From NCBI GenBank assembly GCA_964603595.1, contig CAZRVN010000003.1, forward strand, positions 71,603 to 135,602: 64,000 bases of DNA. The letters run 5' to 3'. Positions 21,579 through 41,795 of this stretch are shown in pieces (the stretch's first letter is position 1; each line of letters starts with the position of its first letter). The notes beneath the pieces are model-generated. The model saw only the letters and a program-made list of their open reading frames with translations. It was not told the DNA's origin and searched no databases. A program made the translations under genes and the position numbers. This DNA is from an uncultured Actinomycetota bacterium (lineage in GTDB: Bacteria; Actinomycetota; Humimicrobiia; Humimicrobiales; Humimicrobiaceae).

Positions 21579-23192
21579 TTGGACAATATACAAAATAATA
21601 CAAATAAGTATATATTTAATTTTATAATCCCGCTTTTTATCTTTCTCTCAATAGCGTATTTAATCTCAAAAAGTATATTTTCTATAAATGCATTTAATCC
21701 TGTTTTTATTATATCTGTTATTTTGATAGTTTTACTTTTAAATATTTCCACCTTTAGTTTTGAAGGCGGTCTTCTTACACTGTTATTTTTATCCTGTGTA
21801 ATAAATTCTGTACCCGTTATAATAATTAAGACGTATATGTTTTATCCTGTTATTTTGTTTTCTTTTCTGGGATTTACACTCGGGGGAGTATTCAGAACTT
21901 CCAGGATGGAAATGAGCCAGTTCTATAAGGATATTAAATTTAAAATCTTAAGTATTTTTATAATCTTATTTACAATAACCATAACGATTTCTGTTTTTTT
22001 TACCATACTAAATAATTTTAACCTGTTTAGTTTAAAAAATTCGGGGATTCATATATATAATATAGATGTTGCTGGCGGAACCTCAATTGATTCGCTTCTG
22101 TTCTCTTTGGAGATGTATCTAAATTATATAATTACCTTTATTTTATTGTTCCTTCTGGTTAAAAGATTAAAAATTTCTAAATTGTTCCTGGTAAAACTAT
22201 TTTATACTTTATTAAGTGCAAATATAGTAGTTTTTATTGTTTTTCTCTATCAGGTTTTTATTGACCACAGCTTTGGCAACCAGCCGCACTATGTAGATAT
22301 GAACCAGTTAAATTCTACTATGATAGGCCCAAACTCTTATGGCTTTTTCTTAGTCTTGAATATTGGCATATTTACTGCATTCCTTTTCTATCTGGATAAA
22401 AGAAAGCACAAAGTTCTATGTATGATTATGTTATTCATTTTACCTTTCCAAATCCTCTACTCCGGCTCAAGAACAAGTCTTATAGGGCTGGCTATTTTTG
22501 TAGCCCTTGTTATATCTTACTTCTTAGTTTCGTTTTTAGTAGATTTAATCAAAAAGAGAAAAAAGGATAAGAATTATATACTGGTTATGGTTGCTGTGAT
22601 GGTATTGCTTGTTATCATACCATCACTATTTTCATTATTTGAACTTAAAACGGATGTGCTTGATGATAAAGATATCCTTGAGCCATCTATGTTAAAGAGA
22701 CTGAGCAGGAATGCAGAACAGGTGCAGCAAGAAGGTTCCCTGACTAAATTAGTATCATCCCGGAATATTATAATACCGCAGTCAATAGAAATGATAAAAG
22801 ATTATCCACTTGTAGGAGTTGGCATAGGAACCTTTCCGCTTGAGCTGTCCAATTATCTTAAGCTTTCCGGCATTGATTTAAAAATAGTTGATTATACATT
22901 AAACACATATCTTCAAATACTTTCGGAAAATGGTATATTCTCATTTATTTTCTTTGTTGGCTTCTATATTACACTATTTGTAATTATATTTAAAAACTTA
23001 AAAGAAATTGGTGTGGTAAGAAATAGAGAATTTCTTATTATAATAATATTTATTATTTTTAGCTGTCTGGTTATGTTTAATTTCATCCCCGGAACAAATT
23101 ATTATGAAGGTCAGATAATTTATTCATTTGTTTTAATTCTATTATTATTATTGTCATATGATTTCAAGAAAATAGAGCATGAAAAAAAATAG
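21579..23192 (+). CDS. Wzy_C-domain (O-antigen ligase/polymerase family) polytopic membrane protein
   Basis: 537 aa, at least 10 TMs. Conserved Wzy_C region YSGSRTSLIGLAIF…, a large extracytoplasmic loop, then …NTYLQILSENGIFS. Confidence 0.65.
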   Translation: MDNIQNNTNKYIFNFIIPLFIFLSIAYLISKSIFSINAFNPVFIISVILIVLLLNISTFSFEGGLLTLLFLSCVINSVPVIIIKTYMFYPVILFSFLGFTLGGVFRTSRMEMSQFYKDIKFKILSIFIILFTITITISVFFTILNNFNLFSLKNSGIHIYNIDVAGGTSIDSLLFSLEMYLNYIITFILLFLLVKRLKISKLFLVKLFYTLLSANIVVFIVFLYQVFIDHSFGNQPHYVDMNQLNSTMIGPNSYGFFLVLNIGIFTAFLFYLDKRKHKVLCMIMLFILPFQILYSGSRTSLIGLAIFVALVISYFLVSFLVDLIKKRKKDKNYILVMVAVMVLLVIIPSLFSLFELKTDVLDDKDILEPSMLKRLSRNAEQVQQEGSLTKLVSSRNIIIPQSIEMIKDYPLVGVGIGTFPLELSNYLKLSGIDLKIVDYTLNTYLQILSENGIFSFIFFVGFYITLFVIIFKNLKEIGVVRNREFLIIIIFIIFSCLVMFNFIPGTNYYEGQIIYSFVLILLLLLSYDFKKIEHEKK

Positions 23193-23688
23193 AAAAATCA
23201 GTAAATACAACTTACTGATTATTGCAATTATAATATTTCTGGTGTTTCTCCTGATAGTTAATATATATGTATCGATTAATTATCTAACGGTTGAAAAAAA
23301 AGTTAAGAGATTCGGACTGGAAAACCTTTATGGCTTTTATGAAACCGGGCAGGAAGATAATATTACATATAGCTGGACAGGGAAAGAAGCTGTTAAGATT
23401 GTAGAAAGGAAGGGAGAGATAGTCTGTATACCTGTGGGGAATGACAGGCCGGATATTAAAGAGGCAGGTGTTGATTTAAAAATTACTGTAAACAATAAAA
23501 TAAAATACAGTGATATAATAAATTCTAATGAGTGGCAGGTAATTTCAATAAATGTCGGGGAAATGAAAGATGATTATATCAGAATAAAATTCAGTGTTGG
23601 GGATACCTGGAAGCCGGTAGATTTAATTGAGGGCTCTACAGATAGTAGAGCTTTAGGGGTTAAAGTTGGCAGGATTTATTGGGAATAA
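23179..23688 (+). CDS. hypothetical signal-anchored extracytoplasmic protein
   Basis: 169 aa: one N-terminal TM then a soluble beta-rich domain. Overlaps the preceding Wzy_C gene by 14 nt, which suggests translational coupling. Confidence 0.4.
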   Translation: MKKNRKISKYNLLIIAIIIFLVFLLIVNIYVSINYLTVEKKVKRFGLENLYGFYETGQEDNITYSWTGKEAVKIVERKGEIVCIPVGNDRPDIKEAGVDLKITVNNKIKYSDIINSNEWQVISINVGEMKDDYIRIKFSVGDTWKPVDLIEGSTDSRALGVKVGRIYWE

Positions 23689-23822
23689 ACATATAAGCTA
23701 AATAATTGTGTGAAAATTTGTTTACTGGTATTATAATCTAAAGCTATGCTCTTTAAGGATATTATTTTTTACTTAAGTAATTTAAAGATTAAAATTTATA
23801 ATTATTATCTAGGAATGCAATA

Positions 23823-25169
23823 ATGAAAGTATGTGTAATAGGTACAGGATATGTAGGGCTTGTTACAGGTGTTTGTCTTTCTGAGATTGGTAACAGAGTA
23901 TTATGCGTTGATAAGGATAAAGAAAAGATAGCTATGCTGAAAAGCGGGAAGGTACCGATATACGAAGAAGGACTTGAGGAACTTATTAAAAAGAATTCCG
24001 CCAGCGGAAATCTTGTTTTTAGCGAAGATACCGGCTATGGAGTCAGGGAAAGTGACATAATATTTATATGCGTTGGCACACCCCCATTGTCAACAGGAAG
24101 GCCGGACCTGTCAGCAATTGATGAAGTAGCAAGATTAATTGGTCAGTCCATTAACGGCTATAAAATTATTTCAAATAAAAGCACTGTCCCGATTGGAACT
24201 GCAAAAAGGATAAGGAAGATAATAAAAGAGAATCAGAATAATGCAGACAGTGCTCATAAGTTTGATATAGTTTCCAATCCTGAATTCTTAAAGGAAGGCG
24301 AAGCAGTAAAGGATGCATTTTTCCCTGAAAGAATTGTAATAGGCGCTAAGAGCAAAAAGGCGGCAGAGTTGATGAAAGAACTTTACAGGCCTATTATAGA
24401 ACAGGATTTTGATTATGCTTTAAACAATACACATAAAAAAGATAAGATACCTGTCCTTATAACTGATTCTACAAGCTCTGAGCTTATAAAATATGCGTCC
24501 AATGCCTTTCTTGCTACCAAGATTTCTTTTGTTAATGAGATTGCAAACATATGTGAGAGAGTAGGCGCCAATATCCTTGATGTAACCTATGGAATGGGGC
24601 TGGATAGTAGAATTGGCTCAAGGTTTATGAAAGCAGGTATTGGTTGGGGAGGTTCATGTTTTCCAAAGGATGTAAGGGCGTTAAGCTATACTGCAGAAGA
24701 ATACGGCTCACCGGCAAGTATCCTGAACGCAGTGATTCAGGTTAATAATCACCAGAGATTTAAGGTGATACAGAAGGCTGTAAATATGCTGGGAATTATT
24801 GAAGATAAAATTATCGGGATACTGGGCCTGTCTTTTAAACCAAATACTGATGATACAAGGGAAACACCTTCTATTGCAATAATTAATAAGTTTCTGGAGC
24901 TCGGAGCAGAAGTAAGGGTTTATGACCCTGTTGTAAAAAAATATCCAGAGGACATGGACAGAGGCGCTGTTATGGTCCCCACACCTTATAAGGCAGTAGA
25001 TAAGGCGCATTTGATGGTTCTGGCTACAGAATGGGATCAGTTCCATAATCTTGATTTCGAAAAAATAAAAAAACTTATGGCCAGCTTAAATATTATAGAC
25101 GGCAGGAACATCTTTGATAGAGACAAGCTCACCGCTATGGGTTTTAATTATACAGGCATTGGATATTAG
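23823..25169 (+). CDS. ugd: UDP-glucose 6-dehydrogenase
   Basis: 448 aa. N-terminal GTGYVGLVTGVCLSEIGN and the catalytic Cys region (GWGGSCFPKD). Confidence 0.9.
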   Translation: MKVCVIGTGYVGLVTGVCLSEIGNRVLCVDKDKEKIAMLKSGKVPIYEEGLEELIKKNSASGNLVFSEDTGYGVRESDIIFICVGTPPLSTGRPDLSAIDEVARLIGQSINGYKIISNKSTVPIGTAKRIRKIIKENQNNADSAHKFDIVSNPEFLKEGEAVKDAFFPERIVIGAKSKKAAELMKELYRPIIEQDFDYALNNTHKKDKIPVLITDSTSSELIKYASNAFLATKISFVNEIANICERVGANILDVTYGMGLDSRIGSRFMKAGIGWGGSCFPKDVRALSYTAEEYGSPASILNAVIQVNNHQRFKVIQKAVNMLGIIEDKIIGILGLSFKPNTDDTRETPSIAIINKFLELGAEVRVYDPVVKKYPEDMDRGAVMVPTPYKAVDKAHLMVLATEWDQFHNLDFEKIKKLMASLNIIDGRNIFDRDKLTAMGFNYTGIGY

Positions 25170-25208
25170 TTTTTGTTAAAAATCTTTACTGGATGAGGAG
25201 GATTTATT

Positions 25209-25664
25209 TTGATAGAAGGAGTTAAAGTAAAAAAACTTAGGGTTATATCTGATGAAAGAGGAAGACTTATGGAAATGCTCCGCTCGGATGACGACCTGTT
25301 TAAAAAGTTTGGGCAGGTTTATATGACAACCGCCTATCCGGGTGTTGTTAAAGGATGGCATTATCATAAAAAGCAGACGGATAATATGGTTGTGGTTAGA
25401 GGTATGATGAAAATTGTTTTATATGACAGCAGGAAAGATTCACCAACATATAAGGAAGTAAACGAATTTTTTATGGGTGTGCATAGTCCCATGCTTCTTC
25501 AGATTCCAAAATATGTTTATCATGGCTTTAAATGCATTACGGATTATGAAGCGATATGCATAAATGTTGTTACCGAACCTTACAACTATGACGACCCTGA
25601 TGAATTCAGGGCAGACCCTCACAGTAGTGAAATACCTTATGACTGGGATAGAAAAGACGGATAG
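25209..25664 (+). CDS. rfbC: short dTDP-4-dehydrorhamnose 3,5-epimerase-like cupin (RmlC family)
   Basis: 151 aa with the RmlC-type pattern VKGWHYHKKQ…SPTY…IPKYVYHGF. TTG start behind GGAGG. Confidence 0.6.
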   Translation: MIEGVKVKKLRVISDERGRLMEMLRSDDDLFKKFGQVYMTTAYPGVVKGWHYHKKQTDNMVVVRGMMKIVLYDSRKDSPTYKEVNEFFMGVHSPMLLQIPKYVYHGFKCITDYEAICINVVTEPYNYDDPDEFRADPHSSEIPYDWDRKDG

Positions 25665-25673
25665 GAGGAACAG

Positions 25674-26660
25674 TTGGAAGAAAGAAATTTTGGAACTCTT
25701 CTTGTAACCGGCGGAGCAGGTTTTATCGGGAGTAACTTTATACATTACATGATAAAAAAATATCCGGAGTATAAAGTAATAAATCTTGATAAATTAACTT
25801 ATGCGGGAAATCTGGAAAACCTTAAGGATATTGAGAATAATCCCAATTATAATTTTATAAGGGGAGATATTGCCGATAGGAAGATTATAGATGAGATTTT
25901 TGATTCCAGAAGGGTTGATGCTGTAATAAATTTTGCTGCAGAATCACATGTAGACAGGTCGATAGAAGACCCCGGGATTTTTATACAAACTGATGTTTTT
26001 GGTACTTATATCCTGCTGGAAGCTGTAAAAAAATATGGCGGCATGTTCCTTCAGATAAGTACCGATGAAGTTTATGGCTCAATAGAAAAGGGCTCATTTG
26101 AGGAAAAAGCTCCCCTTAAACCAAACAGCCCCTACTCTGCTTCAAAAGCCGGTGCGGAGATGATTGTAAGGTCTTTTTATAGGACCTATGGTACACCGGT
26201 AATTATAACAAGGACTTCCAATAATTTTGGCCCCTATCAGTATCCTGAGAAAATAATTCCCTTGTTCGTCACCAATCTTATTAATAATAAGAAAGTCCCG
26301 CTTTACGGAGATGGAATGAATGTAAGAGACTGGATTTACGTGGAGGATAATTGTAATGCTCTGGACAGGGTTCTTCATGAGGGAAGAATTGGCGAAGTGT
26401 ACAATATAGGTGCAGGGAATGAGAAACCGAATATCTGGATTACCAGGGAAGTAATAAAAATTCTGGGTAAATCGGAAGATATGATTGAGCCGGTTAAAGA
26501 CAGGTTAGGGCATGACCGCAGGTATTCAATTGACTGTTCAAAAATAAAAAAAGAGCTTAACTGGAAGACTTCTTACAATTTTAAAGAGGCACTAGAAAAA
26601 ACCGTTAACTGGTATGTAAATAATGAAGACTGGTGGAGACCCCTTAAGGGAAAGGCATAA
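25674..26660 (+). CDS. rfbB: dTDP-glucose 4,6-dehydratase
   Basis: 328 aa, LVTGGAGFIGSNF…, strong RmlB pattern throughout. Confidence 0.9.
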   Translation: MEERNFGTLLVTGGAGFIGSNFIHYMIKKYPEYKVINLDKLTYAGNLENLKDIENNPNYNFIRGDIADRKIIDEIFDSRRVDAVINFAAESHVDRSIEDPGIFIQTDVFGTYILLEAVKKYGGMFLQISTDEVYGSIEKGSFEEKAPLKPNSPYSASKAGAEMIVRSFYRTYGTPVIITRTSNNFGPYQYPEKIIPLFVTNLINNKKVPLYGDGMNVRDWIYVEDNCNALDRVLHEGRIGEVYNIGAGNEKPNIWITREVIKILGKSEDMIEPVKDRLGHDRRYSIDCSKIKKELNWKTSYNFKEALEKTVNWYVNNEDWWRPLKGKA

Positions 26661-26800
26661 ACATTTCAGGCAGAATTAAATATATACACCCGGTTTATGA
26701 CTGTATAAACATTATTTATAAAGATAAAGCGGATATTTACATTTCTCGAATTGTTATTTTGAATATTTTTGAGTAGTGTTACCATAAATATATAAAATAA

Positions 26801-28138
26801 ATGAAAATAGTAACATTTATAAAAGGATTCTGGCGTAAAGTCAGGACTAGCTCCTTAATCCGTGATTCAGCAAGTACTACTTTTTTTAATACTGCCGGTA
26901 AAGCAGTAGGATTTTTAATCCCCTTTTTTATAGCAGCCTGGTTTGGAGTAACTAGGGCGACCGATGCCTTTTTCTTTGCCTATGGCATAATTATTTTTAT
27001 CTCAGCAATTTTTTACCCCGTAATGGAAAAAGTTATTGTGCCATTTATTGCTAAAGTAAGATCTGATGGCGGGGATGTAGGGAGATTTATAGGCAGTGTA
27101 TCAGTAATAATAACCGCGGTGCTTATTGCTTTATCCCTGATTATTATACTGGTAATTAAACCGGTGCTTTCAATAATTACCAGATTTGATGAGAAGTCTT
27201 TAGAGTTAATTTTTATAATAATACTGGAAACCATACCCCTTATATTTTTTCTTACCTGGACCAGTATGCTGGCAGGGGCTATAAATGCGCATAAAAGATT
27301 TATACTGCCTGCACTATCACCTGCTTTCCGTGCGGTAGTATGCTTATTAATTATTTATTTTTTAAAGGACTTATGGGGTGTGCATGTTATAGCTCTGGGG
27401 TATGTTATTGGGGAGATTATAAGGTTTTTAATATTATTTATTTTTGTTTTTAAAAAGAATCTCTTTAAAATAAGATTATCTTTTAAAATTAATAAGGAAA
27501 ATAAAAGATTTTTAAGGGTTTCCTCTTATCAGGTTCTGGGAATGCTGGTTGTTGGTCTGACTCCTATAATAGATAAAACCATGGCATCCTGGCTCGAAAT
27601 TGGAAGTGTTTCTATTTTAGAGTATGCAGACAGACTTTATATGATTCCCACAACCTTTTTATCTACAGGAGTTATGGTTGTACTTCTTTCTTACTGGAGC
27701 GAGAGGTATTTTAAACTGGGTAAACAAAGGTTAAAGGAAGATATGAAGAAGGCACTGATAGTGGTGACCCTTATAGCGATATTTATAGCTGCAATACTGA
27801 TTGTTTTTAGCAGGTGGATTGCTTTACTTGCTTTTGGTAGGGGAGAGTTTGATATGGAAAAAATTCCTGAAGTAAGTTTGGTGTTTATATTTTATCTTGC
27901 AGGGTTTTTCCCCTATATAGCAGGTAGAATTTTTGTTCAGGCGCATCTTGTTTTAAGCAATACAAAAGCTCTGCTTAAATGCGGGATATATATTAGTATA
28001 TTAAATATTATACTTAATTATATTTTTATGAAATTTTTTGGTGTGGCCGGTATTGCACTGGCCACATCTTTTACTTCCATATTCAGTTTGTGTTATCTTG
28101 GTATTGTTTTTTTTAAAAAACTAGGGAAAGAGGGCTAA
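26801..28138 (+). CDS. polysaccharide flippase (Wzx/MurJ-like MOP-superfamily transporter)
   Basis: 445 aa, about 12 predicted TMs, MOP-family N-terminus. Located in the glycan locus. Confidence 0.65.
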   Translation: MKIVTFIKGFWRKVRTSSLIRDSASTTFFNTAGKAVGFLIPFFIAAWFGVTRATDAFFFAYGIIIFISAIFYPVMEKVIVPFIAKVRSDGGDVGRFIGSVSVIITAVLIALSLIIILVIKPVLSIITRFDEKSLELIFIIILETIPLIFFLTWTSMLAGAINAHKRFILPALSPAFRAVVCLLIIYFLKDLWGVHVIALGYVIGEIIRFLILFIFVFKKNLFKIRLSFKINKENKRFLRVSSYQVLGMLVVGLTPIIDKTMASWLEIGSVSILEYADRLYMIPTTFLSTGVMVVLLSYWSERYFKLGKQRLKEDMKKALIVVTLIAIFIAAILIVFSRWIALLAFGRGEFDMEKIPEVSLVFIFYLAGFFPYIAGRIFVQAHLVLSNTKALLKCGIYISILNIILNYIFMKFFGVAGIALATSFTSIFSLCYLGIVFFKKLGKEG

Positions 28139-28142
28139 TATA

Positions 28143-28916
28143 ATGGATAAGGATAATTACCGTAATAGGTGTTACGATAGCTTTGTAAGCAAACACTGGA
28201 AATATACCCACGAATTATCCAAAAGGGAATATGTTTTTTTAAAAAAGGTTTATAGAAAAAGGTATGGTCCTTTTTTACCTGCCGACTTAAATGCTAAAAT
28301 TCTTGATATTGCATGCGGGGCCGGGCATTTTTTATATTTTATTCAAAGTGAGGGCTATAAAAATTCATATGGTATAGATATCAGTAAAGAACAGATAAAT
28401 TTAGCAAAGAAAATGGGGGTAAAGAATGTTGAGGAGTCGGATTTTATGGAGTATTTACCGTGCTATAAAAAAAGTTTTGATGTGATTACAGCCAACGATA
28501 TTATGGAGCATTTAAAGAAAGATGAATTAATGAATTTTCTGGACCTGTTATACAGGTGTTTGAAGAAAGAGGGCATATTAATAGTAACTGTTCCAAATGC
28601 AATGTCGCTTTTTGGGGCAAGTGCCGTTTTTGCAGATTTTACCCATGAAATAGGATTTACACCCGGTAGCCTTGCGCAGGTTTTACACGCATGCAATTTT
28701 ACCAATGTAAGAGTATATGGAGAGAAACCTGTTGCCCATGATTTTATGAGTGCTGTAAGAAAAGTTATATGGTCCATTTTTAAATTTGGTTTAAAAATTT
28801 GCATCCTTGCAGAAAGAGGAACCGGCCGGGGATTCAGGAAGTACAAGTATATATTTGAACCAAGAATGTATGCGGTGGTAGAAAAGAAAGACATGGAAGT
28901 GCAGGGTAATGAATAA
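28143..28916 (+). CDS. class I SAM-dependent methyltransferase
   Basis: LDIACGAGHF Rossmann motif I and a downstream DVI…ND motif. 257 aa. Confidence 0.7.
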   Translation: MDKDNYRNRCYDSFVSKHWKYTHELSKREYVFLKKVYRKRYGPFLPADLNAKILDIACGAGHFLYFIQSEGYKNSYGIDISKEQINLAKKMGVKNVEESDFMEYLPCYKKSFDVITANDIMEHLKKDELMNFLDLLYRCLKKEGILIVTVPNAMSLFGASAVFADFTHEIGFTPGSLAQVLHACNFTNVRVYGEKPVAHDFMSAVRKVIWSIFKFGLKICILAERGTGRGFRKYKYIFEPRMYAVVEKKDMEVQGNE

Positions 28917-30027
28917 AAAAAGGATTCTTTTTATGGTACCCTCTCTGGCGGGAGGGGGAGCTGAGAGAATATGTGTTAGCATAATCAGAAATATTGACAG
29001 GAAAAAATTTGAGCCCGGTATTATTCTATTTGAAAAGAGGGGGAGTTACCTGCAGGAAATACGGGAAGATGTAGTTATATATGACTTAAAGAAAAAAAAT
29101 AGGTTTGATTTTCTAAAATTGTTAAGGTTATCTGTAAGAATTTTTTCTGAGCTAAAACCGGATATTGTTATCAGTTTTTTAAGTTATGCAAATTTTATTA
29201 ATGTTCTTTCAAAAATTTTAAGCTTCCCTAAAATTCCCGGTAAAATCATTATTAGTGAGCGTAATTATTCTTCTATATATTTAAAGTACGAAAGAATGAG
29301 AAAAATAAAAGAAATTCTTTTAAGAGTGCTTTACAGGAGAGCTGGTAAGGTTGTTGTTATAGCTGAAGGAATTAAAGAGGATTTGATTAATACATTCAGG
29401 ATTCCACATGAGAAAATAATAGTAATTTATAATGGTATAGATGTTAATGAAATTGAAAAGCTTGGCAGCGAACCTGTAAATAGCGTGCTATTTAATGACA
29501 GTGTTCCGATAGTAATTGCCTGTGGCAGTCTGACATTTAAAAAGAATTTCTCGTTTTTACTTTATGCTTTTTCTGAAGTTTTGAAGGTACTTGATGCAAA
29601 GCTTATAATTATGGGAGAAGGAGAGGAAAAAGAAAAGCTTACAGGTCTGTCTGAAAAATTAAAAATAGGTAGCAGAGTATTTTTCCCGGGCTTCCAGAAA
29701 AATCCATTTAAATTTATAAAGAGCGCTGATGTATTTGCTCTGTCATCAAGATGGGAAGGATTTGGCAATGTGATTGTTGAGGCAATGGCATGCGGAGTTC
29801 CTGTTGTATCAACAAATTGTCCCTCGGGTCCAGGTGAGATTATAACTGATGGAAAAAACGGGCTTCTTGTTGATGTTGCGGATGTAAAGGGCATGTCTGA
29901 AGCAATATTGAAGTTATTAAGAGACAGGAAGCTTGCCGGGAAAATAGCCCGGGAAGGAAAGAGGAGAGCAGAGGATTTCAGAGTTGAGAAAATGGTAAGA
30001 GAATATGAGAAACTATTTGAAAAGTAG
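28909..30027 (+). CDS. glycosyltransferase family 4
   Basis: GT4 two-domain architecture. C-terminal EGFGNVIVEAMACGVPVV is the E-x7-E motif. Confidence 0.8.
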   Translation: MNKKRILFMVPSLAGGGAERICVSIIRNIDRKKFEPGIILFEKRGSYLQEIREDVVIYDLKKKNRFDFLKLLRLSVRIFSELKPDIVISFLSYANFINVLSKILSFPKIPGKIIISERNYSSIYLKYERMRKIKEILLRVLYRRAGKVVVIAEGIKEDLINTFRIPHEKIIVIYNGIDVNEIEKLGSEPVNSVLFNDSVPIVIACGSLTFKKNFSFLLYAFSEVLKVLDAKLIIMGEGEEKEKLTGLSEKLKIGSRVFFPGFQKNPFKFIKSADVFALSSRWEGFGNVIVEAMACGVPVVSTNCPSGPGEIITDGKNGLLVDVADVKGMSEAILKLLRDRKLAGKIAREGKRRAEDFRVEKMVREYEKLFEK

Positions 30028-30085: not shown

Positions 30086-31312
30086 ATGAAGGTTCTTTTA
30101 ATAAATAAATATTTATATCCGAAAGGCGGAGATGCCGTAAGCACTCTTGAAACAGGAAAACTACTTTATTCAAGGGATAATGAGGTTGTATTATGGGGGA
30201 TGGATAGCCCTGAAAATTTAGATTTACCCTATAAAAAATACTTTGTTTCTTATATTGATTACAACAAACCACTGGGTATTTTTAAGAAATTAAAGGTTTC
30301 CATGAAAATTTTGTATTCATTAGAGGCGAAGCGTAAAATAAGTGAGCTTTTAAAAAACTGGATGCCTGACATTGTACATCTAAACAATTTTGCCCACCAG
30401 ATTTCGCCATCAATACTGGATGTGTTTAAGAAATACAGGATACCTACCGTGATGACCATGCGTGATTATAAGATGGTCTGCCCTGCATATTCAATGCTAT
30501 TGAATGGAAAGCCATGCGAGAAGTGTAAAAATGGTAAATATTATTATTGCTTTAAAAATAAGTGCAACAAAAATTGCAGAGCTAAAAGCTTTATCAGCAT
30601 GCTTGAAATGTATCTTCATCATAAAGTCTTAAAAATATATGAAAGTATTGATTATTTTATTGCACCAAGTAAGTTTTTAATGAATAAAGTAAAGGAAATG
30701 GGGTTTAATAAGAGGGTTGTTTATCTACCAAACTTTGTTGACCTGGATGTATATAAACCCGATTATAATTCTAGCGAAGACTCTATTGTTTATTTTGGCA
30801 GGCTTTCTGAAGAAAAGGGGTTAGAAACTCTTATAGATGCTGTTAAGAATTTAAATACTAACCTTAAGATTATTGGGAGCGGCCCGTATAAAGATAGACT
30901 GAATAATAAGGTTATTATAGAGAAAATAAAAAATGTGTTTTTTTTAGGATATAAAAAGGGAGAAGAATTAAGGAAGATAGTAGGAGAATCGTTAATAGTG
31001 GTTGTTCCATCTGAATGTTATGAGAATTGCCCCCGCTCAATACTAGAATCTTTTGCACTTGGAAAACCAGTTATTGGCTCAAGGATAGGGGGTATCCCGG
31101 AGTTAGTAATTGATGGTGAAACCGGATATACATTTAAAGCCGGGGATAGTAAAGATCTGGGAGGAAAGATAGAATATATGCTTAGTAATACTGATGAAGT
31201 AAAAAAGCTTGGAAAAAATGCAAGAAAATTTGTTGAAGAAAAATTTAACCCTGAAAGGCATTATAGAAAATTAATTGATATTTATAATAATGTAATAAAA
31301 AACAATAGATAA
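30086..31312 (+). CDS. glycosyltransferase family 4 with a Cys-rich insertion in the N-domain
   Basis: GT4 with a C-terminal E-x7-E region (ENCPRSILESFALGKPVIGSRIGGIPELV). It has a six-cysteine segment, CPAYSMLLNGKPCEKCKNGKYYYCFKNKCNKNC (≈30479-30580). Confidence 0.8.
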   Translation: MKVLLINKYLYPKGGDAVSTLETGKLLYSRDNEVVLWGMDSPENLDLPYKKYFVSYIDYNKPLGIFKKLKVSMKILYSLEAKRKISELLKNWMPDIVHLNNFAHQISPSILDVFKKYRIPTVMTMRDYKMVCPAYSMLLNGKPCEKCKNGKYYYCFKNKCNKNCRAKSFISMLEMYLHHKVLKIYESIDYFIAPSKFLMNKVKEMGFNKRVVYLPNFVDLDVYKPDYNSSEDSIVYFGRLSEEKGLETLIDAVKNLNTNLKIIGSGPYKDRLNNKVIIEKIKNVFFLGYKKGEELRKIVGESLIVVVPSECYENCPRSILESFALGKPVIGSRIGGIPELVIDGETGYTFKAGDSKDLGGKIEYMLSNTDEVKKLGKNARKFVEEKFNPERHYRKLIDIYNNVIKNNR

Positions 31313-31346: not shown

Positions 31347-32324
31347 ATGGAAGCTTCAATAATAGTGACTTACAGGTGCAATTTTAAATGTTATATGTGC
31401 AAAATATGGAAATATCCTACAAGTGTTGAGGAAGAGTTTAAACCTGAGCTACTGGATAGGCTCCCGGAGCTTGATTTTTGCAATATAACAGGTGGTGAGC
31501 CCTTTTTAAGGGATGATATAAGCGAAATTGTAGGGATTCTTAAGCAGAAGTCCAGGAGAATAGTTATCAGCACAAATGGTTATTTTACCGAACGTATTAT
31601 AGAGGTTGTAAAAAATAATAAAGATATTGGAATAAGAATAAGCATAGAGGGCTTGCCCAAAATCAATGATAGGTTGAGAGGGGTGAGGGATAGCTTTGAC
31701 CATGGACTGCGTACATTATTAAACCTTAAAAAAATGGGACTGAAAGATATAGGATTCGGGATAACAGTATCTGACAGGAATGCTGAAGACATGCTTGAAT
31801 TATATGACCTGGCAAGGTTTTTAGGTGTGGAGTTTGCTACTGCAGCAGTGCATAATGGATACTATTTTCATTCTTATAATAATAAAATCAGGGACAGGCA
31901 AAAAGTAATTGATAGTTTTAAAAAATTAATTTTTGAGTTATTAAAATCAAAAAGGCCGAAGGACTGGTTTAGAGCTTATTTTAACTATGGTCTTATAAAT
32001 TATATAAGAGGTAAAAAAAGATTGCTTCCATGTGAAGCGGGAACGGAAAATTTCTTTATGGACCCCTGGGGAGAAATAAGGCCGTGCAATGCAATGGAGG
32101 ATAAATTCTGGTTTGAAAGCATGGGAAATTTAAAAGAAAAAAAATTTAATGAAATCTGGAACAGCAAAAAAGCAGAGGAAATAAGAGAAGAGGTTAAAAA
32201 CTGCCCAAAAAACTGCTGGATGATTGGAACAGCAGCACCGGTAATGAAAAAATATATTAAGATACCTTTAAAATGGGTTATAGACGCTAAATTTTTAAAA
32301 AAGATTAAGGTGGAGGACCTATAA
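31347..32324 (+). CDS. radical SAM enzyme with C-terminal Cys-rich auxiliary (SPASM/twitch-like) domain
   Basis: N-terminal CNFKCYMC is the CxxxCxxC motif. C-terminal Cys residues at 229, 247, 286 and 290 (…LLPCEAG…RPCNAM…NCPKNCWMIG). 325 aa. Confidence 0.8.
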   Translation: MEASIIVTYRCNFKCYMCKIWKYPTSVEEEFKPELLDRLPELDFCNITGGEPFLRDDISEIVGILKQKSRRIVISTNGYFTERIIEVVKNNKDIGIRISIEGLPKINDRLRGVRDSFDHGLRTLLNLKKMGLKDIGFGITVSDRNAEDMLELYDLARFLGVEFATAAVHNGYYFHSYNNKIRDRQKVIDSFKKLIFELLKSKRPKDWFRAYFNYGLINYIRGKKRLLPCEAGTENFFMDPWGEIRPCNAMEDKFWFESMGNLKEKKFNEIWNSKKAEEIREEVKNCPKNCWMIGTAAPVMKKYIKIPLKWVIDAKFLKKIKVEDL

Positions 32325-32326
32325 GA

Positions 32327-33469
32327 ATGAAAATTGGTTTCGTCGGGCAGAAAGGGATTCCAGCAGTTTGGGGAGGTGTTGAAACGCATGTAGAAGAGCT
32401 ATCGGCCAGACTGGCAAAGAGGGGGCATAAGACAACAGTTTATGTTAGAAATTGGTATACCCCATTGGATAAGACCAGGTATAGAGGTGTTGAGCTAAAA
32501 CACATGCCCAGCATCCATACAAAATATTTTGATGCTATAACCCATAGTTTTAGTTCCAGTATTAATTCCTTATTTAAGTCATTTGACATAATTCATTATC
32601 AGGCAATGGGACCGGCCCTGCTTTCGTGGATTCCAAAAGTTTTTCGTAAAAAGGTTGTTGTTACAATTCACAGGTTTGATTATGATTCAGCAAAATGGGG
32701 ATATTTTTCAGGGAAGATTCTTAAACTCTCAGAGAGATTTGCACTTTCGGTGCCCGATAAAACTATTGTAGTGGCCAGATATCAAGAAGAAATATATAAG
32801 AATAGAGGTTATAATCCTGTATATGTTCCTAATGGCGTTAATATTCCTGATTTTAGGAAGGCAAAAATTATCAAAGGAGAGTATGGGCTGCAAGGGAAAG
32901 ATTATATTTTATATATAGGGAGATTAGTTCCTGAAAAGAGATGTGATTGGCTAATAAATGCTTTTAAAAAATTAGATTCTAATGGCGAAAATAGTTTAAG
33001 ACTTGTTATTGCAGGAGGGTCAAGTTCCACAGACGAATATGTTAATAATTTAAAGAATATGAGTAAGGATAATAATAAAATCATTTTTACAGGATATGTT
33101 ACTGGAAGAAAAAAAGAGGAGCTTTACAGCAATGCACTTTTATTTGTTCTGCCTTCTTATTTAGAAGGATTACCCATTTCAGTTCTTGAGGCATCAAGTT
33201 ATGGCCTGCCTTGCCTGGTTAGTGATATTATTCCGCATAAAGAAGTTATTACTGATGGAGTTAATGGTTTTTTCTTCGGGAGCAGCGGTTATGGCGATCT
33301 TGAGGATAAACTAAAGAAAACATTGCTTTTACCACAGAATAAATTAGAGAGAGTGGGAAAGGCGGCAAAAGAGAATGTCAGGAGAAATTATGATTGGGAC
33401 CACGTGGCTGATAGCACCGAGAATATATATTTTAAGGTTTTAAAAGGAGTAAAAAGAAATTCAAAGTAA
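32327..33469 (+). CDS. glycosyltransferase family 4
   Basis: GT4 pattern. …EGLPISVLEASSYGLPCLVSDI… is the E-x7-E motif. Starts 2 nt after the radical-SAM stop. Confidence 0.8.
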   Translation: MKIGFVGQKGIPAVWGGVETHVEELSARLAKRGHKTTVYVRNWYTPLDKTRYRGVELKHMPSIHTKYFDAITHSFSSSINSLFKSFDIIHYQAMGPALLSWIPKVFRKKVVVTIHRFDYDSAKWGYFSGKILKLSERFALSVPDKTIVVARYQEEIYKNRGYNPVYVPNGVNIPDFRKAKIIKGEYGLQGKDYILYIGRLVPEKRCDWLINAFKKLDSNGENSLRLVIAGGSSSTDEYVNNLKNMSKDNNKIIFTGYVTGRKKEELYSNALLFVLPSYLEGLPISVLEASSYGLPCLVSDIIPHKEVITDGVNGFFFGSSGYGDLEDKLKKTLLLPQNKLERVGKAAKENVRRNYDWDHVADSTENIYFKVLKGVKRNSK

Positions 33470-33566: not shown

Positions 33567-35030
33567 ATGGTTTTGGAATTTATAAAAAACCTCCCCAGGA
33601 GGAAGCAAAAACTAATATACGGAATAATCCTGTTTTTAAGTGATACGATATTTCTGGCTATAAGCTTTTCTCTGTCATATTCTCTCAGGTTCTATACCAC
33701 GCTCTTTAGCTTTATGGAATCAGGGCCAATTTATACCATTGATATTCATTATGTTTTCTATTCAGTAATTTTCACTCTCCTGACTTTGTTATTACTGGAT
33801 ATTTATCAGTTATATAACCGGGATCAGATATATGAGGGTTCAGGCTATTATAACAGGATATTTAAAGCAGTAAGTATAAATATAGTAATTATAATAATTG
33901 CAGGTTATCTGTACGAGACTTTTTCTTTTTCAAGAATATGGGTAGCTCTTTTATATTTCTTCAGTGTCCTCTTTCTTTTTACTGGAAGGTTTCTAATTTC
34001 GGTTATAACTAACTATTTTATTAAGAAATTAAAATTATCATCAAGGACTTTAATAGTTGGTATAGGGGAGAATGCAAGAAGGATAAAAAATGCCCTTGAA
34101 AATTACAGGATGGAAAGTTTTGAGGTAGTGGGTTATGTGGAGAAAGAGGAAAAAATTAAGAGCAGTAAAAAGTATAGCGATGAATTTAATGTTTTAGGGT
34201 ATTTGAAGAATCTTAAAGAAATAGTGAAAAAAAACGATGTCCAGAAGGTTATTATTTCAGGAAAGGAATATAAATATTATGAGATACTGAACATGCTTGA
34301 AAAAATAAAAGGTATGGATGTTTTAATACTTATGTTCCCGGGATTTTTTGAATTTTCAATAAAGAGAATGAAAATGAGGGAAGTAGGTAGAATTCCTTTA
34401 GTCCAGATATCAAATGTGGGATTTTTCGGGATTGATTTATTTTATAAAATTTTAATTGATTATGTCCTGGGGGGAGTGCTATTTTTAATATTTGTTCCTA
34501 TATATTTGATAGTAGGGTTTCTAATAAAAGTGGATTCCAGGGGACCGGTTTTGTACAAACAAAAAAGATACACGAAGGGCATGAAACCATTTTACATGTA
34601 TAAATTCAGGACCATGTATACCGGTGCAGACAAAAGGCTTGCCGGCTTGAAGGATAAGAGTGGGGTAAATGGTCCGATATTTAAAATGAGAAATGACCCG
34701 AGAATAACAAGAGTAGGAAAATATTTCAGGAGGTTTTCTATAGATGAGCTTCCGCAGATAATAAATGTTTTAAAAGGGGAAATGAGTCTGGTTGGCCCGA
34801 GGCCCCCCATACCCGGTGAGGTAAAAAGATATGAGGAGTGGCATAAGAAAAGATTAAATGTAAAGCAGGGTATAACAGGGCTCTGGCAGGTTAGCGGGAG
34901 AAGCGAGCTAAGTTTTGACGAGATGGTGAGACTTGACCTTTATTATATACAGAACTGGTCTATTGGAATGGATATAGAAATAATAATAAAGACTATGCCG
35001 ACTGTATTATTCGGGAGAGGCGCATATTAA
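33567..35030 (+). CDS. full-length polyprenyl-phosphate hexose-1-phosphate transferase (WbaP/WcaJ/TuaA-like priming PGT)
   Basis: 487 aa. Four or five N-terminal TMs, a CoA-binding-like middle domain, and the C-terminal sugar-transferase core (…KFRTM…DELPQIINVLKGEMSLVGPRP…). Confidence 0.85.
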   Translation: MVLEFIKNLPRRKQKLIYGIILFLSDTIFLAISFSLSYSLRFYTTLFSFMESGPIYTIDIHYVFYSVIFTLLTLLLLDIYQLYNRDQIYEGSGYYNRIFKAVSINIVIIIIAGYLYETFSFSRIWVALLYFFSVLFLFTGRFLISVITNYFIKKLKLSSRTLIVGIGENARRIKNALENYRMESFEVVGYVEKEEKIKSSKKYSDEFNVLGYLKNLKEIVKKNDVQKVIISGKEYKYYEILNMLEKIKGMDVLILMFPGFFEFSIKRMKMREVGRIPLVQISNVGFFGIDLFYKILIDYVLGGVLFLIFVPIYLIVGFLIKVDSRGPVLYKQKRYTKGMKPFYMYKFRTMYTGADKRLAGLKDKSGVNGPIFKMRNDPRITRVGKYFRRFSIDELPQIINVLKGEMSLVGPRPPIPGEVKRYEEWHKKRLNVKQGITGLWQVSGRSELSFDEMVRLDLYYIQNWSIGMDIEIIIKTMPTVLFGRGAY

Positions 35031-35077: not shown

Positions 35078-35833
35078 TTACTTTATTCCGCAGTGGTTCT
35101 TAAATAAAATATTTGCCTTAAGCAGTTCTTCATAATCATTTATGTTGATATTGTAACCGTTAAGAAAATAACCGTAAGCTTTTCCTTTGCTGGCTACATT
35201 ATTTATAACGGATGTTATGTCTTTTTCTTTCCTTACGGAATACGGTGGTGTGTTACGTATAAAATTAAATATTTCAGTTTTGAATAAATAAATCCCGCAT
35301 CCCCTTATCATATAAGGAGGGCTGTCAGGTTTCTCTATTATTTCCAGTATCCTGCCATCTTTATCTATATTTGCCGAGCATGTCTGCCTTAAAATATCTA
35401 TGTCTTTTTCTTTTACTACTACCTCGGTAGCGATTGATCCGGTGCTGGAGAATAAATCAATCATTGGCTCCAGTGAGTCGGCAATAATACACTCATCGCT
35501 TAAAATAACCATAAACGGCTGTTTTTTTGTATATTTTTCGGTCAGGAGGATTGCATTGGCAAGGCCATCCAGTTTTTTTTGTTCTATAAAATGGATTTTT
35601 GCCTTAAGGCCTGTTTTTATATTTTTGTAATACTCTTTTATTTTTTCTTTATGGTAATTGACAATAATATATATGTCCTCTATTCCCAGTGATTCCATAA
35701 GGTCAATTATATGGTGTAATATGGGACGGTCATAAATAGGAAATAATGTTTTTGGGAGAAGGTTCGAAAGGTAACCAAGCCTTGAGCCGGCCCCGGCAGC
35801 CGGGACAACTCCTATTTTAATTCTTTTTTGCAT
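35078..35833 (-). CDS. sugar-1-phosphate nucleotidyltransferase (RmlA/GlmU-N-terminal-like)
   Basis: The N-terminus (GVVPAAGAGSRL) is the nucleotidyltransferase signature. At 251 aa it is shorter than classical RmlA. Only minus-strand gene inside the main locus. Confidence 0.7.
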   Translation of the reverse strand: MQKRIKIGVVPAAGAGSRLGYLSNLLPKTLFPIYDRPILHHIIDLMESLGIEDIYIIVNYHKEKIKEYYKNIKTGLKAKIHFIEQKKLDGLANAILLTEKYTKKQPFMVILSDECIIADSLEPMIDLFSSTGSIATEVVVKEKDIDILRQTCSANIDKDGRILEIIEKPDSPPYMIRGCGIYLFKTEIFNFIRNTPPYSVRKEKDITSVINNVASKGKAYGYFLNGYNININDYEELLKANILFKNHCGIK

Positions 35834-36010
35834 TTATTATTAAATATACAGTTAAATTGTAAGATTTTAAAAAATTTTGTCTTAAATTTTATTTCCAGAA
35901 TGCTTTTTTATCATAGTTAAAATTTGTGAATTACTAAAATTGTTTAAAATGTCTTTATATTAATATATAATTTCAATAAATTTCGTATTATTAAGAGAGT
36001 AATTTGAGGT

Positions 36011-37699
36011 ATGAATTTTACCAGAAACATGTCTGAAAGTAAAAGATTTAAAGGTTTTTTAAAGAATAATTTATTTTTTGTAGTCGCACTGGCGATATGT
36101 ATCTTCCTTGTTTTTTATAATCTGGGGGAGATAGAATTCTGGGGAGAAGACGAGGCGCAGACGCTGCTTTATGCTTCCAGGTTTATTATAGGTATAAAAA
36201 ATCATTCCCTGTCAAATGCCACTTCCATATACTCAAATAACACTTTATCTTTTGTAATGTTAATCCAGGTACCATTTATATTACTGTTCGGCGTATGCGA
36301 GCTGGCTTCAAGGATGCCTGCAGCAATAGTTACTATCCTTACTCTTTTTATAATTTATAAGATAGGGCTATTGTTTCTGGACAGGAAGTCTGCCAATTTT
36401 CTGGCATTGCTTTATGCGGTATCGGGCGCAGTGGGCTTATTTAAAAGTTCAATAGGTGTCGGTTTTTATCTATTTTTTATTCTTCTCGGATTTTATAACA
36501 TTGAAAAATTCCTGTACGCCCCGGATGAAGGAGAGAGGGGCAGGTTTTTAAACCTGCAGGCAGGTTTAATTTTTATTGTTTTTGCCCTTATTTCAGTTCT
36601 TGACGGGTACTTTTTTATTCCATTTTTTATAATTATTTTGCTTATTAATATAAGGAAGATAGGAGTCAGGAGGTTTTTACTGAGTCTTATAGCGCCGGTA
36701 GTAATTTTTTTATCTTTTATTTACTTTGAGTTTTTTCTTGCAAGAAAATTAACCGGGATGAATAATGCCACATACAAGCATTTTCTTGGAAGGCGGGGTA
36801 GCCTGGAATTAACTTTTAATTTTACGGAGTTCATCCAGGGGCTTATAACAAGTTATTCTATTTATTTTGTAATTTTATTTCTGGTTTCACTGGTAATTTT
36901 AATTGTTTTGCTGGCTGCTAGAAAAATAAGAATTCCGGGTCCACTGGGGCGCATCGCACTTCTTTTTTCTTTTCATTTTTTTGTGTGGATATTTCTTATG
37001 GAAAAAGAGAATGGGCATTCGTTGAATAGTTATCCGGTAATGCTGCTTGTAGTTGCCTTTGCTTTTATGGTTGTGAATGGGCTAATTGAGGAAAATAAGT
37101 TTTTAAGGAGAGGCACCAGGGTGACAGTTAAAACATTTCTTACTGTTTTACTGGCTGCAGCTATATGTTTTAATCTTTATCATACTTTTATAGTCTTTAA
37201 TAATTTATCTATTGAAAAGGAAAAGTACCCCGGTATCTATATGCCGGGGAATATACCGGCTGGATACGTATGGGGGCATAAGGTAGGTATAAAAAGTGCT
37301 GCGTACCTTTTGAGGAAAGACAACTTTTTTACTGGTGGAATGGTTTCCCACTATGGCTCTGCCTTTAATTTCATTTATATGGGCGGAGAGATAATAGTAT
37401 ATAATTCAAGCAATGCTATTGAATATAGGATGGAAGGAGAAGATATTACTGAAAAATATAAAATAAGGTACATAGCAATTTCCCCAGGTTTTTTTAACAA
37501 GGAGTATCTGGATTATATAGATTCGCAGGGCTTTAAAAAGATAGTTATTACTCATAGGGGTAAGGAAATTTATTACGTATATGATGTCCTGACAGCAAGC
37601 GACGAGGTTGTAGTAATTGGAAGAGACCAGTATGATAGAGAGTATAATAAAGAGTATGCAAATATTAATGTTGCGCTGCCTTATTTTAATAGTTTTTAA
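36011..37699 (+). CDS. GT-C fold polytopic glycosyltransferase (ArnT/PMT_2-like, GT39/GT83-type)
   Basis: 562 aa, more than 10 TMs. First extracytoplasmic loop has WGEDEAQT (the DE motif of polyprenyl-P-sugar-dependent GT-C enzymes), followed by the ArnT-like segment ELASRMPAAIV. Confidence 0.55.
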   Translation: MNFTRNMSESKRFKGFLKNNLFFVVALAICIFLVFYNLGEIEFWGEDEAQTLLYASRFIIGIKNHSLSNATSIYSNNTLSFVMLIQVPFILLFGVCELASRMPAAIVTILTLFIIYKIGLLFLDRKSANFLALLYAVSGAVGLFKSSIGVGFYLFFILLGFYNIEKFLYAPDEGERGRFLNLQAGLIFIVFALISVLDGYFFIPFFIIILLINIRKIGVRRFLLSLIAPVVIFLSFIYFEFFLARKLTGMNNATYKHFLGRRGSLELTFNFTEFIQGLITSYSIYFVILFLVSLVILIVLLAARKIRIPGPLGRIALLFSFHFFVWIFLMEKENGHSLNSYPVMLLVVAFAFMVVNGLIEENKFLRRGTRVTVKTFLTVLLAAAICFNLYHTFIVFNNLSIEKEKYPGIYMPGNIPAGYVWGHKVGIKSAAYLLRKDNFFTGGMVSHYGSAFNFIYMGGEIIVYNSSNAIEYRMEGEDITEKYKIRYIAISPGFFNKEYLDYIDSQGFKKIVITHRGKEIYYVYDVLTASDEVVVIGRDQYDREYNKEYANINVALPYFNSF

Positions 37700-37774
37700 A
37701 TTTAAAAATAGGGTTTTTAATCATTGAAATTTGATGACAACAGGAATAATAAATAGTTACAAAAGGGTAAAATA

Positions 37775-38635: not shown

Positions 38636-38680
38636 TTAAATATTTAAGGTGTTATTTTTAAAGCAGACGCTTTTTTATTT

Positions 38681-39658: not shown

Positions 39659-39678
39659 GAAATAAAAAAGATAAAAAA

Positions 39679-40857: not shown

Positions 40858-40882
40858 AGATTTTAAAATGGGTATATAAAAA

Positions 40883-41761: not shown

Positions 41762-41795
41762 GTAGCAAGTAGATTTAAAGTAGCAATTTGTAATT

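Follow-up and report, generated by a model that had tools for sequence, protein, structure and literature searches.

What does a radical S-adenosylmethionine (SAM) enzyme do between two glycosyltransferase genes? The question is raised by a stretch of 64,000 nucleotides from an uncultured Actinomycetota bacterium of the family Humimicrobiaceae (GenBank assembly GCA_964603595.1, contig CAZRVN010000003.1, positions 71,603 to 135,602 of the forward strand; here, the window). In it, a gene for a radical SAM protein of 325 amino acids (here, rSAM; 31347..32324, plus strand) lies between two genes of GT4-type glycosyltransferases (GTs), which we call GT4up (30086..31312, plus strand, 408 amino acids) and GT4dn (32327..33469, plus strand, 380 amino acids). 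Our analysis shows that genes of the rSAM family, in surface-polysaccharide loci that otherwise vary, are genetically tied to two particular orthologue groups of GT4s and that the GT4-rSAM-GT4 arrangement is a widespread mobile cassette. The enzyme most likely makes a modified sugar in cell-surface glycans.

Judged by its sequence, the central gene encodes an intact radical SAM enzyme that has a further site of four cysteines, of the twitch type. The open reading frame (ORF) begins with ATG and has no internal stop, and stops are abundant on the opposite strand. Residues 5-155 match the Pfam Radical_SAM domain (PF04055; E=1.1e-19, 71.7 bits against a cutoff of 29.5). The CX3CX2C motif pointed out in an earlier sequence-only reading of the window, CNFKCYMC, occupies residues 11-18 (C11-N-F-K-C15-Y-M-C18; codons at 31377..31400, plus strand) and should bind the SAM-cleaving [4Fe-4S] cluster. 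In an alignment of 46 homologues (61-82% identity), this motif, on whose conservation the same reading had let its claim depend, is present in 46 of 46 sequences; T48-G49-G50-E51 (the GGE SAM-binding motif), G242, and the four further cysteines that it had singled out (C229, C247, C286, and C290) are invariant as well, as are eight Arg/Lys residues. The only other cysteine, C45, becomes A, T, or V in homologues. The family also has conserved motifs of its own, AAVHNxYYFH and WFRAYFNxG. An AlphaFold2 model (mean pLDDT 88.6, pTM 0.88) places a beta-hairpin at residues 235-245 (strands 235-238 and 243-245) and then helices at 267-283, downstream of C229.

The C-terminal region had been called “SPASM/twitch-like”, and only the second half of that description stands. 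Residues 229-290 (32031..32216, plus strand) match Pfam SPASM (PF13186; E=2e-10, 41.2 bits against a cutoff of 21.5) with the pattern C229-X12-G242-X4-C247 ... C286-X3-C290. The canonical seven-cysteine SPASM motif, CX9-15GX4C ... CX2CX5CX3C ... C, which would provide for two clusters, was not found in rSAM, which has four of these cysteines. No cysteine follows C290 in rSAM, in the 46-sequence alignment, or in an alignment with CteB, in whose SPASM motif the first CX2C is matched by C286 and C290. Furthermore, the rSAM family profile matches the twitch region of BtrN (residues 155-225) with E=1.3e-6. Because the C-terminal domain has only four cysteines, it is predicted to be twitch-like, with sites for one fully ligated auxiliary cluster at most.

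The three genes are tightly spaced, as the sequence-only reading had observed. The GT4up stop codon ends at 31312 and the rSAM ATG lies at 31347, leaving a gap of 34 nucleotides that contains an AAGGCGG ribosome-binding site; the rSAM stop codon ends at 32324 and the GT4dn ATG lies at 32327, leaving 2 nucleotides, with the ribosome-binding site GGTGGAGGA within the 3' end of rSAM. Cotranscription, which that reading had taken as given, is plausible from this spacing and from the conserved synteny described below. A signal scan adds nothing to it, because promoter-like sites in the window are barely above the shuffled expectation (65 against 54.2, standard deviation 6.1) and neither gap flanking rSAM contains a terminator-like site.

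A protein search with rSAM returned at least 8,000 candidates, and the best 120, which are described here, show 63-82% identity and lengths of 307-353 amino acids. One genome per GTDB species (185,579 representatives) was then scanned with two family-specific peptide patterns. At least 447 species have a confirmed rSAM relative, with top matches at roughly 57-82% identity and a spread over more than 15 phyla. The top 80 species include Nitrospirota, Nitrospinota, anammox Planctomycetota, Thermodesulfobacteriota, Aminicenantes, Elusimicrobia, Stahlbacteria, Zixibacteria, Omnitrophota, Spirochaetes, Verrucomicrobiota, Clostridia, Bacteroidota (Prevotella sp. CAG:1031), and Zetaproteobacteria, together with the cultured Thermosulfurimonas dismutans and a Nanoarchaeia archaeon; a separate look-up added a Hodarchaeota archaeon. 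Thus, radical SAM chemistry in such loci, which had been described as rare and functionally uncharacterized, is not rare, Segatella copri and Coprococcus-like Firmicutes being among the carriers, and only its uncharacterized status apparently holds. The carriers seen are mostly anaerobes. That the glycan must be made under anaerobic or microaerobic conditions, as had also been proposed, does not follow from radical SAM chemistry alone, because aerobes run the radical SAM enzymes BioB, LipA, and MiaB.

The genomic context was surveyed in the best 80 of the at least 447 species-level loci, many of them cut by contig ends, by calling ORFs and scoring them against the window proteins. Orthologues were accepted at 200 bits or more for GT4up and at 180 bits or more for GT4dn; they score 180-630 bits, against 25-70 bits for other GT4s. 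A GT4dn orthologue is present in 72 of the 80 loci, where it often overlaps the rSAM stop codon by 4 nucleotides, and a GT4up orthologue is present in 61; both GT4s occur in 54 loci and neither in a single one. Fifty-one loci are complete, extending for at least 3 kb both upstream and downstream. Among them, rSAM stands beside a GT4dn orthologue in 47 (92%) and beside a GT4up orthologue in 41 (80%), and the order GT4up-rSAM-GT4dn is kept in 35 (69%); the pairing of radical SAM and GT4 genes that the sequence-only reading proposed to survey is a widespread one. Where all three genes are present (55 loci), identity to the window counterparts has a median of 63.7% for rSAM, 48.4% for GT4up, and 37.6% for GT4dn.

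Little else is shared among these loci. The gene for the polyprenyl-phosphate hexose-1-phosphate transferase that initiates glycan synthesis (PGT) is part of 18 loci by ORF clustering and of 21 of the 80 by phmmer, usually as the next gene after GT4dn; the window and about a quarter of the related loci have this arrangement. Apart from the two GT4s, PGT, and antisense shadows, no neighboring ORF of at least 90 amino acids recurs in more than 10 of the 80 loci, and no nucleotide-sugar enzyme, reductase, aminotransferase, or deacetylase does so. The remaining genes of the window locus are not conserved beside rSAM elsewhere. Individual look-ups found the same cassette in unrelated surroundings in Brocadia, Jettenia, Edwardsbacteria, a Nitrospinota genome, and the Hodarchaeota archaeon. 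For Segatella copri DSM 18205, the annotated plasmid collection lists a glycosyltransferase, the radical SAM protein WP_050758626, and a GT4, which are 35%, 53%, and 36% identical to the window proteins. The antisense shadows are ORFs within the rSAM gene, such as one of 129 amino acids at window positions 32000-32389 on the minus strand, which we do not regard as genes. Their equivalents in 14-43 related loci (ORF clusters 3, 4, 5, and 7) recur because the rSAM coding sequence beneath them is strongly conserved.

Natural gene fusions join rSAM to each of its neighbors. In two Zixibacteria genomes (loci L049 and L062), rSAM and GT4dn form a single ORF of 732-735 amino acids; the two sequences differ substantially and are therefore not a shared assembly error. 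A protein search with the Zixibacteria fusion, with architectures confirmed by sequence reading and Pfam, identified further rSAM-GT4dn fusions of 700-760 amino acids (P0121-P0125), of which P0121 contains Radical_SAM, SPASM, DUF1972 (41.2 bits, cutoff 25), and Glycos_transf_1 in one chain. GT4up-rSAM fusions of 790-880 amino acids include P0193, from Coprococcus sp. OM04-5BH, and P0164; some clusters of this type have up to 1,075 member sequences, and the fusion is thus common in gut Firmicutes. The Coprococcus-like locus consists of PGT, a DUF1972 GT4dn orthologue (42% identical), an acyltransferase, the GT4up-rSAM fusion, more tailoring genes, and a flippase. Fusions to both partners constitute Rosetta-stone evidence that rSAM, GT4up, and GT4dn act together. 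In the rSAM-GT4dn fusion, the rSAM C terminus enters the first strand of the GT acceptor domain with almost no linker, whereas in the GT4up-rSAM fusion, rSAM begins after the helix with which the GT ends. In the GT-B fold, this C-terminal helix packs back on the acceptor domain, and by this analogy both fusion types would place rSAM beside the acceptor-binding N-terminal domain of a GT. The role in carbohydrate metabolism that the sequence-only reading favored is thus supported by context, the two GT4 orthologues being the only conserved neighbors in the 80 loci, and by the fusions to each of them.

Other partners are found as well. Roughly 30 clusters (e.g., P0152) consist of proteins of about 590 amino acids in which rSAM is joined to an FNR-like domain for FAD/NAD(P) binding; one such protein, from Kiritimatiellae, is listed in 239 index blocks of the collection. 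Some gut and Desulfovibrio-type forms (P0193 and P0164) carry Cys-rich C-terminal tails, in which not all cysteines are conserved.

Several side observations concern these fused or extended forms. In loci with FNR-fused proteins (L096-L098 and L102-L104), the fusion gene is found in one operon with DinB and a PIG-L-family deacetylase of 557 amino acids, in the vicinity of GT9/MBOAT/AlgX genes, or in that of a Poly_export gene. P0240 (696 amino acids) combines rSAM with a LicD-family phosphotransferase domain (147 bits), an architecture that appears to link the enzyme to phospho-substituent glycan decoration in some Firmicutes. In the same homologue set, P0126, P0128, and P0131 (741-761 amino acids) consist of two tandem GT4dn-type (DUF1972) units. 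The rSAM proteins of S. copri DSM 18205 (L094, 11986-13197) and Pseudobutyrivibrio xylanivorans pNP95 (L095, 11986-13158) are 85% identical and close to the Coprococcus-type fusion, and this likeness between a gut member of the Bacteroidota and a rumen member of the Bacillota indicates a recent interphylum transfer in gut ecosystems. These forms have a C-terminal extension of about 70 amino acids. A CX2CX2C-type cysteine group is found in the extensions of P. xylanivorans and P0193 and is only partly kept in S. copri. A radical SAM gene on a Brachyspira plasmid was also considered, but it is not a homologue: the annotated plasmid collection gave zero Brachyspira matches to rSAM.

GT4up (Glycos_transf_1, 2.9e-34) has an insertion in its N-terminal domain with C132, C144, C147, and C160 (CX11CX2CX12C), all invariant in 58 orthologues. 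This suggests a zinc or iron site in the acceptor-side domain, which could be structural or could serve as an electron-transfer partner of rSAM. By sequence, the domain has no counterpart among solved GT4 structures, and the best NCBIfam match of GT4up is BshA (92 bits against a cutoff of 274). GT4dn (Glycos_transf_1, 5.2e-35) begins with GxxGIPxxWGGVETH, as in DUF1972 proteins, and has no conserved cysteine in the orthologue alignment. It aligns over its full length, although weakly (64 bits, well under the cutoff), with the Cps2T/WchF rhamnosyltransferase model. DUF1972-type GT4s such as WchF/Cps2T and GacB are the second enzyme of their pathways and act on glucose or N-acetylglucosamine linked to undecaprenyl diphosphate.

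Directly downstream, at 33567..35030 on the plus strand, lies a PGT of the WcaJ/WbaP type (Bac_transf, 4.5e-65; TIGR03025, 421.8 bits against a cutoff of 295.55), which is the probable source of the lipid-linked acceptor. The rest of the locus, which is variable (21579..30027, plus strand; Pfam/NCBIfam), encodes a Wzy_C protein, UDP-glucose dehydrogenase, a small cupin (RmlC/FdtA-like), dTDP-glucose 4,6-dehydratase, a MurJ/Wzx-like flippase (2.6e-57), a methyltransferase, and a PglJ-like GT4. With Wzy_C proteins at 21579 and 41796 and a Wzz-like protein at 37775 in addition to PGT and the flippase, the surroundings are a Wzx/Wzy-type locus.

To which known enzymes is rSAM related? In a library-wide profile scan, it reaches the cutoff of no curated NCBIfam family. 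The highest scores are those of AhbC (82 bits), PTO1314 (TIGR03961; 80), NirJ1/NirJ (75), and AhbD (73), against cutoffs of 306 for PTO1314, 500-650 for AhbC, AhbD, and NirJ, and 300-650 for the top families overall. Because these scores are so far under the cutoffs, rSAM is not a member of any of these families; thus, the profile classification that the sequence-only reading called for places it in no noncarbohydrate class. PTO1314 gives the best full-length alignment (rSAM residues 7-292 against 29-304 of 332), and weak matches below the cutoff also include AlbA, MftC, and PapB. NCBI and JGI records carry no specific name for the family, and an exact-sequence cluster look-up of the three window proteins yielded neither a name nor a taxonomic placement. 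Homologues are called “radical SAM protein” or, in JGI records (P0055, P0132, P0143, and P0157), “Fe-coproporphyrin III synthase”, a label that is wrongly applied. A literature search found no paper on the family and no function for PTO1314. Foldseek against the PDB retrieves SuiB, anSME, SkfB, CteB, BlsE, ChlB, MoaA, AbmM, and PqqE at 12-19% identity. Taken together, these comparisons place rSAM among the twitch-type proteins of the SPASM/twitch radical SAM group, within no characterized family.

The closest parallels are two enzymes of antibiotic pathways. BtrN, the 2-deoxy-scyllo-inosamine dehydrogenase of butirosin biosynthesis (PDB 4M7S/4M7T), resembles rSAM in being a small single-polypeptide enzyme with a carbohydrate-like substrate and one four-cysteine auxiliary [4Fe-4S] site, in which a close cysteine pair follows the first two. 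The likeness is limited to the C-terminal domain, with very low overall identity, and BtrN is shorter (250-270 amino acids, against 317-353 for the rSAM family) and comes from an aminoglycoside cluster with a free small-molecule substrate, whereas the rSAM family is tied to two GT4s and polysaccharide loci. The first two auxiliary cysteines of BtrN are similarly spaced, CX17C as in rSAM. In BtrN, the fully Cys-ligated twitch cluster takes an electron away from the substrate radical. BlsE, the cytosylglucuronate decarboxylase of blasticidin S biosynthesis (PDB 7VOB/7VOC), has a nucleotide-like glycoside as substrate and shows the best mutual TM-score to rSAM among solved structures (0.65/0.65), and the rSAM family profile matches its core with E=7e-8 (residues 10-132). 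The UDP-glucose dehydrogenase gene of the window locus means that a glucuronic acid residue, comparable with the substrate of BlsE, is available here. However, BlsE is only 17% identical to rSAM, and the dehydrogenase gene is not conserved beside the cassette elsewhere.

Twitch radical SAM enzymes acting on carbohydrates are a known class, and to our knowledge, carbohydrate-tailoring radical SAM enzymes come almost only from antibiotic pathways and from the synthesis of membrane-lipid head groups. No radical SAM enzyme was previously known that sits at the center of a mobile, conserved GT-rSAM-GT cassette of Wzx/Wzy loci. In the pathways of calditol synthase (Cds), HpnJ, and PtmC, a GT attaches a sugar, and its rearrangement by a radical SAM enzyme follows while it is bound to the lipid or carrier (PMC13459092 section 2.6; PMC9092360 sections 4.2.1-4.2.2). 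The logic of glycosyl transfer first and radical editing second is shared, by description only, with the pathway proposed below, but the substrates of these enzymes are head groups of membrane lipids or an intermediate of an antibiotic, not Wzx/Wzy repeat units, and no report describes any of them together with a second GT downstream or fused to a GT.

We consider it probable that rSAM is a glycan-tailoring enzyme that works with two dedicated GT4s in Wzx/Wzy repeat-unit assembly, and not an enzyme of ribosomally synthesized and posttranslationally modified peptide (RiPP), sulfatase, or heme pathways. As a portable module, the three proteins would install one nonstandard sugar and extend it during the cytoplasmic assembly of the repeat unit. 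The order of events can be proposed with somewhat less than an even chance of being right. PGT would prime undecaprenyl phosphate, the DUF1972-like GT4dn would add the second sugar, rSAM would edit this sugar, still joined to the lipid carrier through a diphosphate, and GT4up, through its acceptor-side domain with the Cys4 insertion, would add the next sugar onto the edited residue. This order is suggested because the rSAM gene sits between the GTs and away from the nucleotide-sugar genes and because the fusion junctions lie at the acceptor domains.

The chemistry can be outlined more tentatively still. A reduced [4Fe-4S] cluster on C11, C15, and C18 would cleave SAM, the resulting 5'-deoxyadenosyl radical would take a hydrogen atom from a sugar C-H, and the fully Cys-ligated auxiliary cluster would pass one electron to or from the sugar radical, yielding a keto sugar (as with BtrN) or the product of a decarboxylation (as with BlsE), a dehydration, or a rearrangement. 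By analogy with characterized enzymes, dehydrogenation to a keto sugar would rank first, followed by decarboxylation or dehydration, by rearrangement or ring contraction, and by epimerization with a Tyr donor. Epimerization with a Cys donor is less likely because rSAM has no free invariant cysteine, C45 being the sole extra one. The FNR-like fusions and Cys-rich tails suggest that electron exchange with an external partner is part of the cycle; because they fit electron-consuming reactions at least as well as dehydrogenation, we hold the specific chemistry to be doubtful.

Two rival explanations take their cue from the nearest annotated relatives. A tetrapyrrole enzyme of the AhbC/AhbD/NirJ type, present in a glycan locus by chance, would account for the best NCBIfam scores and for the “Fe-coproporphyrin III synthase” labels. 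We find it scarcely credible: the scores are 7-9 times under the cutoffs and reflect mostly the generic radical SAM core (residues 7-160), the AhbC/AhbD/NirJ enzymes carry full SPASM domains, GT4 synteny holds in more than 90% of loci and is accompanied by GT4 fusions, and no heme genes lie near rSAM in the window. A SPASM-class maturase of the sactipeptide or anSME type, acting on a peptide or on a neighboring protein such as the Cys-rich loop of GT4up, is very improbable, if less so. The SPASM maturases (anSME, SuiB, CteB, SkfB, AlbA, MftC, and PqqE) share with rSAM a partial TIM barrel and a C-terminal Cys-rich domain that opens with CX9-15GX4C. The top Foldseek matches (E down to 7e-12) are peptide-modifying enzymes, namely, SuiB, anSME, SkfB, CteB, and ChlB; AlbA, MftC, PapB, and others match weakly in NCBIfam; and the GT4up insertion with its four invariant cysteines is fused to rSAM in many gut Firmicutes. 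Yet all these matches are far under the family cutoffs or at 12-19% identity (15-19% for the maturases named above), and most SPASM maturases have two auxiliary clusters bound through the seven-cysteine motif, where rSAM has four cysteines and one site. Many of them also recognize peptides through an N-terminal domain and are paired with a precursor or a sulfatase, but rSAM has none of these features: its radical SAM motif starts at residue 11, leaving no room for a RiPP recognition element or another peptide-binding domain; the gaps of 34 and 2 nucleotides have no room for a precursor gene; no conserved extra ORF of at least 90 amino acids was found (shorter ORFs were unscreened across related loci); and no sulfatase lies near rSAM in the window or in the conserved neighborhood. 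The tighter partner, GT4dn, has no conserved cysteine. The sequence-only reading, which had judged a RiPP maturase unlikely and had seen no cognate sulfatase, was thus sound on both points.

The rivals that keep a carbohydrate substrate are weightier. In one, which we regard as a serious possibility although short of an even chance, rSAM converts a common nucleotide sugar (e.g., UDP-glucose, UDP-N-acetylglucosamine, or UDP-glucuronic acid), which one GT4 transfers and the other extends, so that the lipid-linked intermediate is untouched. The nearest small-molecule neighbors of rSAM, BlsE, MoaA, AbmM, and the viperins, use nucleotide-linked substrates; rSAM is much more conserved than either GT, can lack one GT4 or both or stand alone as an FNR fusion, and has no membrane-association signal; and its eight invariant Arg/Lys residues would suit a diphosphate. 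On the other hand, rSAM is placed between the GTs and not with the nucleotide-sugar genes of the locus, the fusions would tether it at the GT acceptor domains, and no nucleotide-sugar gene covaries with it, although a housekeeping precursor would need none. The other such rival, a ring contraction or carbocycle-forming rearrangement of a glycosidically linked hexose that would exchange an acid-labile glycosidic bond for an ether-linked cyclitol in the glycan, we consider unlikely. It has a precedent in the rearrangement of GT-attached sugars in the Cds, HpnJ, and PtmC pathways (PMC13459092; PMC9092360), the GT-rSAM-GT order would fit, and the best full-length NCBIfam alignment is with the archaeal PTO1314 family. 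Nevertheless, the likeness to Cds, HpnJ, and PtmC is one of pathway description, none of the carriers is known to make a polysaccharide that contains such a residue, and the cyclitol ether would have to stay a competent acceptor for GT4up. Moreover, HpnJ belongs to a different class, being a B12-binding radical SAM enzyme.

The proposal of a dedicated module in which rSAM edits a lipid-linked sugar has several points against it. (i) One GT is missing in some complete loci (about 9 of the 51 have only rSAM and GT4dn, and 3 only GT4up and rSAM), and the FNR-fused subfamily (P0152 and P0143-P0183), whose rSAM domain is 56-60% identical, does not stand beside these two GT4s. Since either GT can be absent, rSAM is not strictly dependent on either one, which favors a soluble substrate. 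(ii) An amphipathicity analysis found no membrane-binding feature in rSAM; a C-terminal amphipathic membrane anchor was considered and dropped, the conserved helices not being among the most amphipathic segments. (iii) The FNR-like fusion suits an electron-consuming reaction better than a self-recycling dehydrogenation. (iv) The literature search found no biochemical or genetic data for any member of the family, and we know of no characterized radical SAM enzyme that acts on an undecaprenyl diphosphate-linked glycan; what rSAM acts on, whether it does so at the lipid-linked or the nucleotide-sugar stage, and which type of reaction it carries out are points of inference.

If the tailoring module is real, radical chemistry joins mainstream surface-polysaccharide assembly, and an unrecognized sugar modification is present in the O-antigens, capsules, and exopolysaccharides of many anaerobes, among them the anammox bacteria of wastewater treatment, gut S. 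copri, and relatives of Coprococcus/Lachnospiraceae. Surface glycans influence how these organisms are attacked by phages and recognized by the immune system. Well defined and ecologically widespread, the module is also experimentally tractable, with three genes, a small enzyme, a cultured type strain as carrier, and natural GT fusions. It is conceivable, although we would not expect every element to hold, that rSAM is the first radical SAM enzyme to edit an undecaprenyl diphosphate-linked sugar in mid-assembly, as part of an obligate GT-rSAM-GT line that makes an undescribed residue (keto, carbocyclic, or otherwise rearranged) and has spread horizontally over more than 15 phyla, including abundant gut bacteria, with the GT4up Cys4 site, the FNR-like fusions, and the Cys-rich tails forming a dedicated electron path.

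Further features of the window concern the glycan genes around the cassette. An Rfam scan of the 64 kb found zero families, including tRNA and rRNA. The dTDP-glucose 4,6-dehydratase (487 bits, above the cutoff) and the RmlC/FdtA/WbuC-like cupin (151 amino acids) lie within 25209-26660, and an RmlA-like nucleotidyltransferase is encoded on the opposite strand at 35078-35833; no RmlD-type reductase was seen between 21.5 and 43 kb. Just past the divergent nucleotidyltransferase gene, a plus-strand ORF at 36011-37699 encodes a protein of 562 amino acids with zero Pfam or NCBIfam matches. An Edwardsbacteria locus (L011) has a Caps_assemb_Wzi protein of 562 amino acids at the equivalent position after PGT, which raises the possibility that the window protein is a divergent outer-membrane protein of the Wzi type. 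From 36000 to 50000 and beyond, a second glycan gene set follows, with a Wzz-like protein, GT2, GT4, GT2, the second Wzy_C gene (41796-43109), and further ORFs. The window, which comes from a low-GC genome (about 35%), therefore holds at least two adjacent polysaccharide loci.

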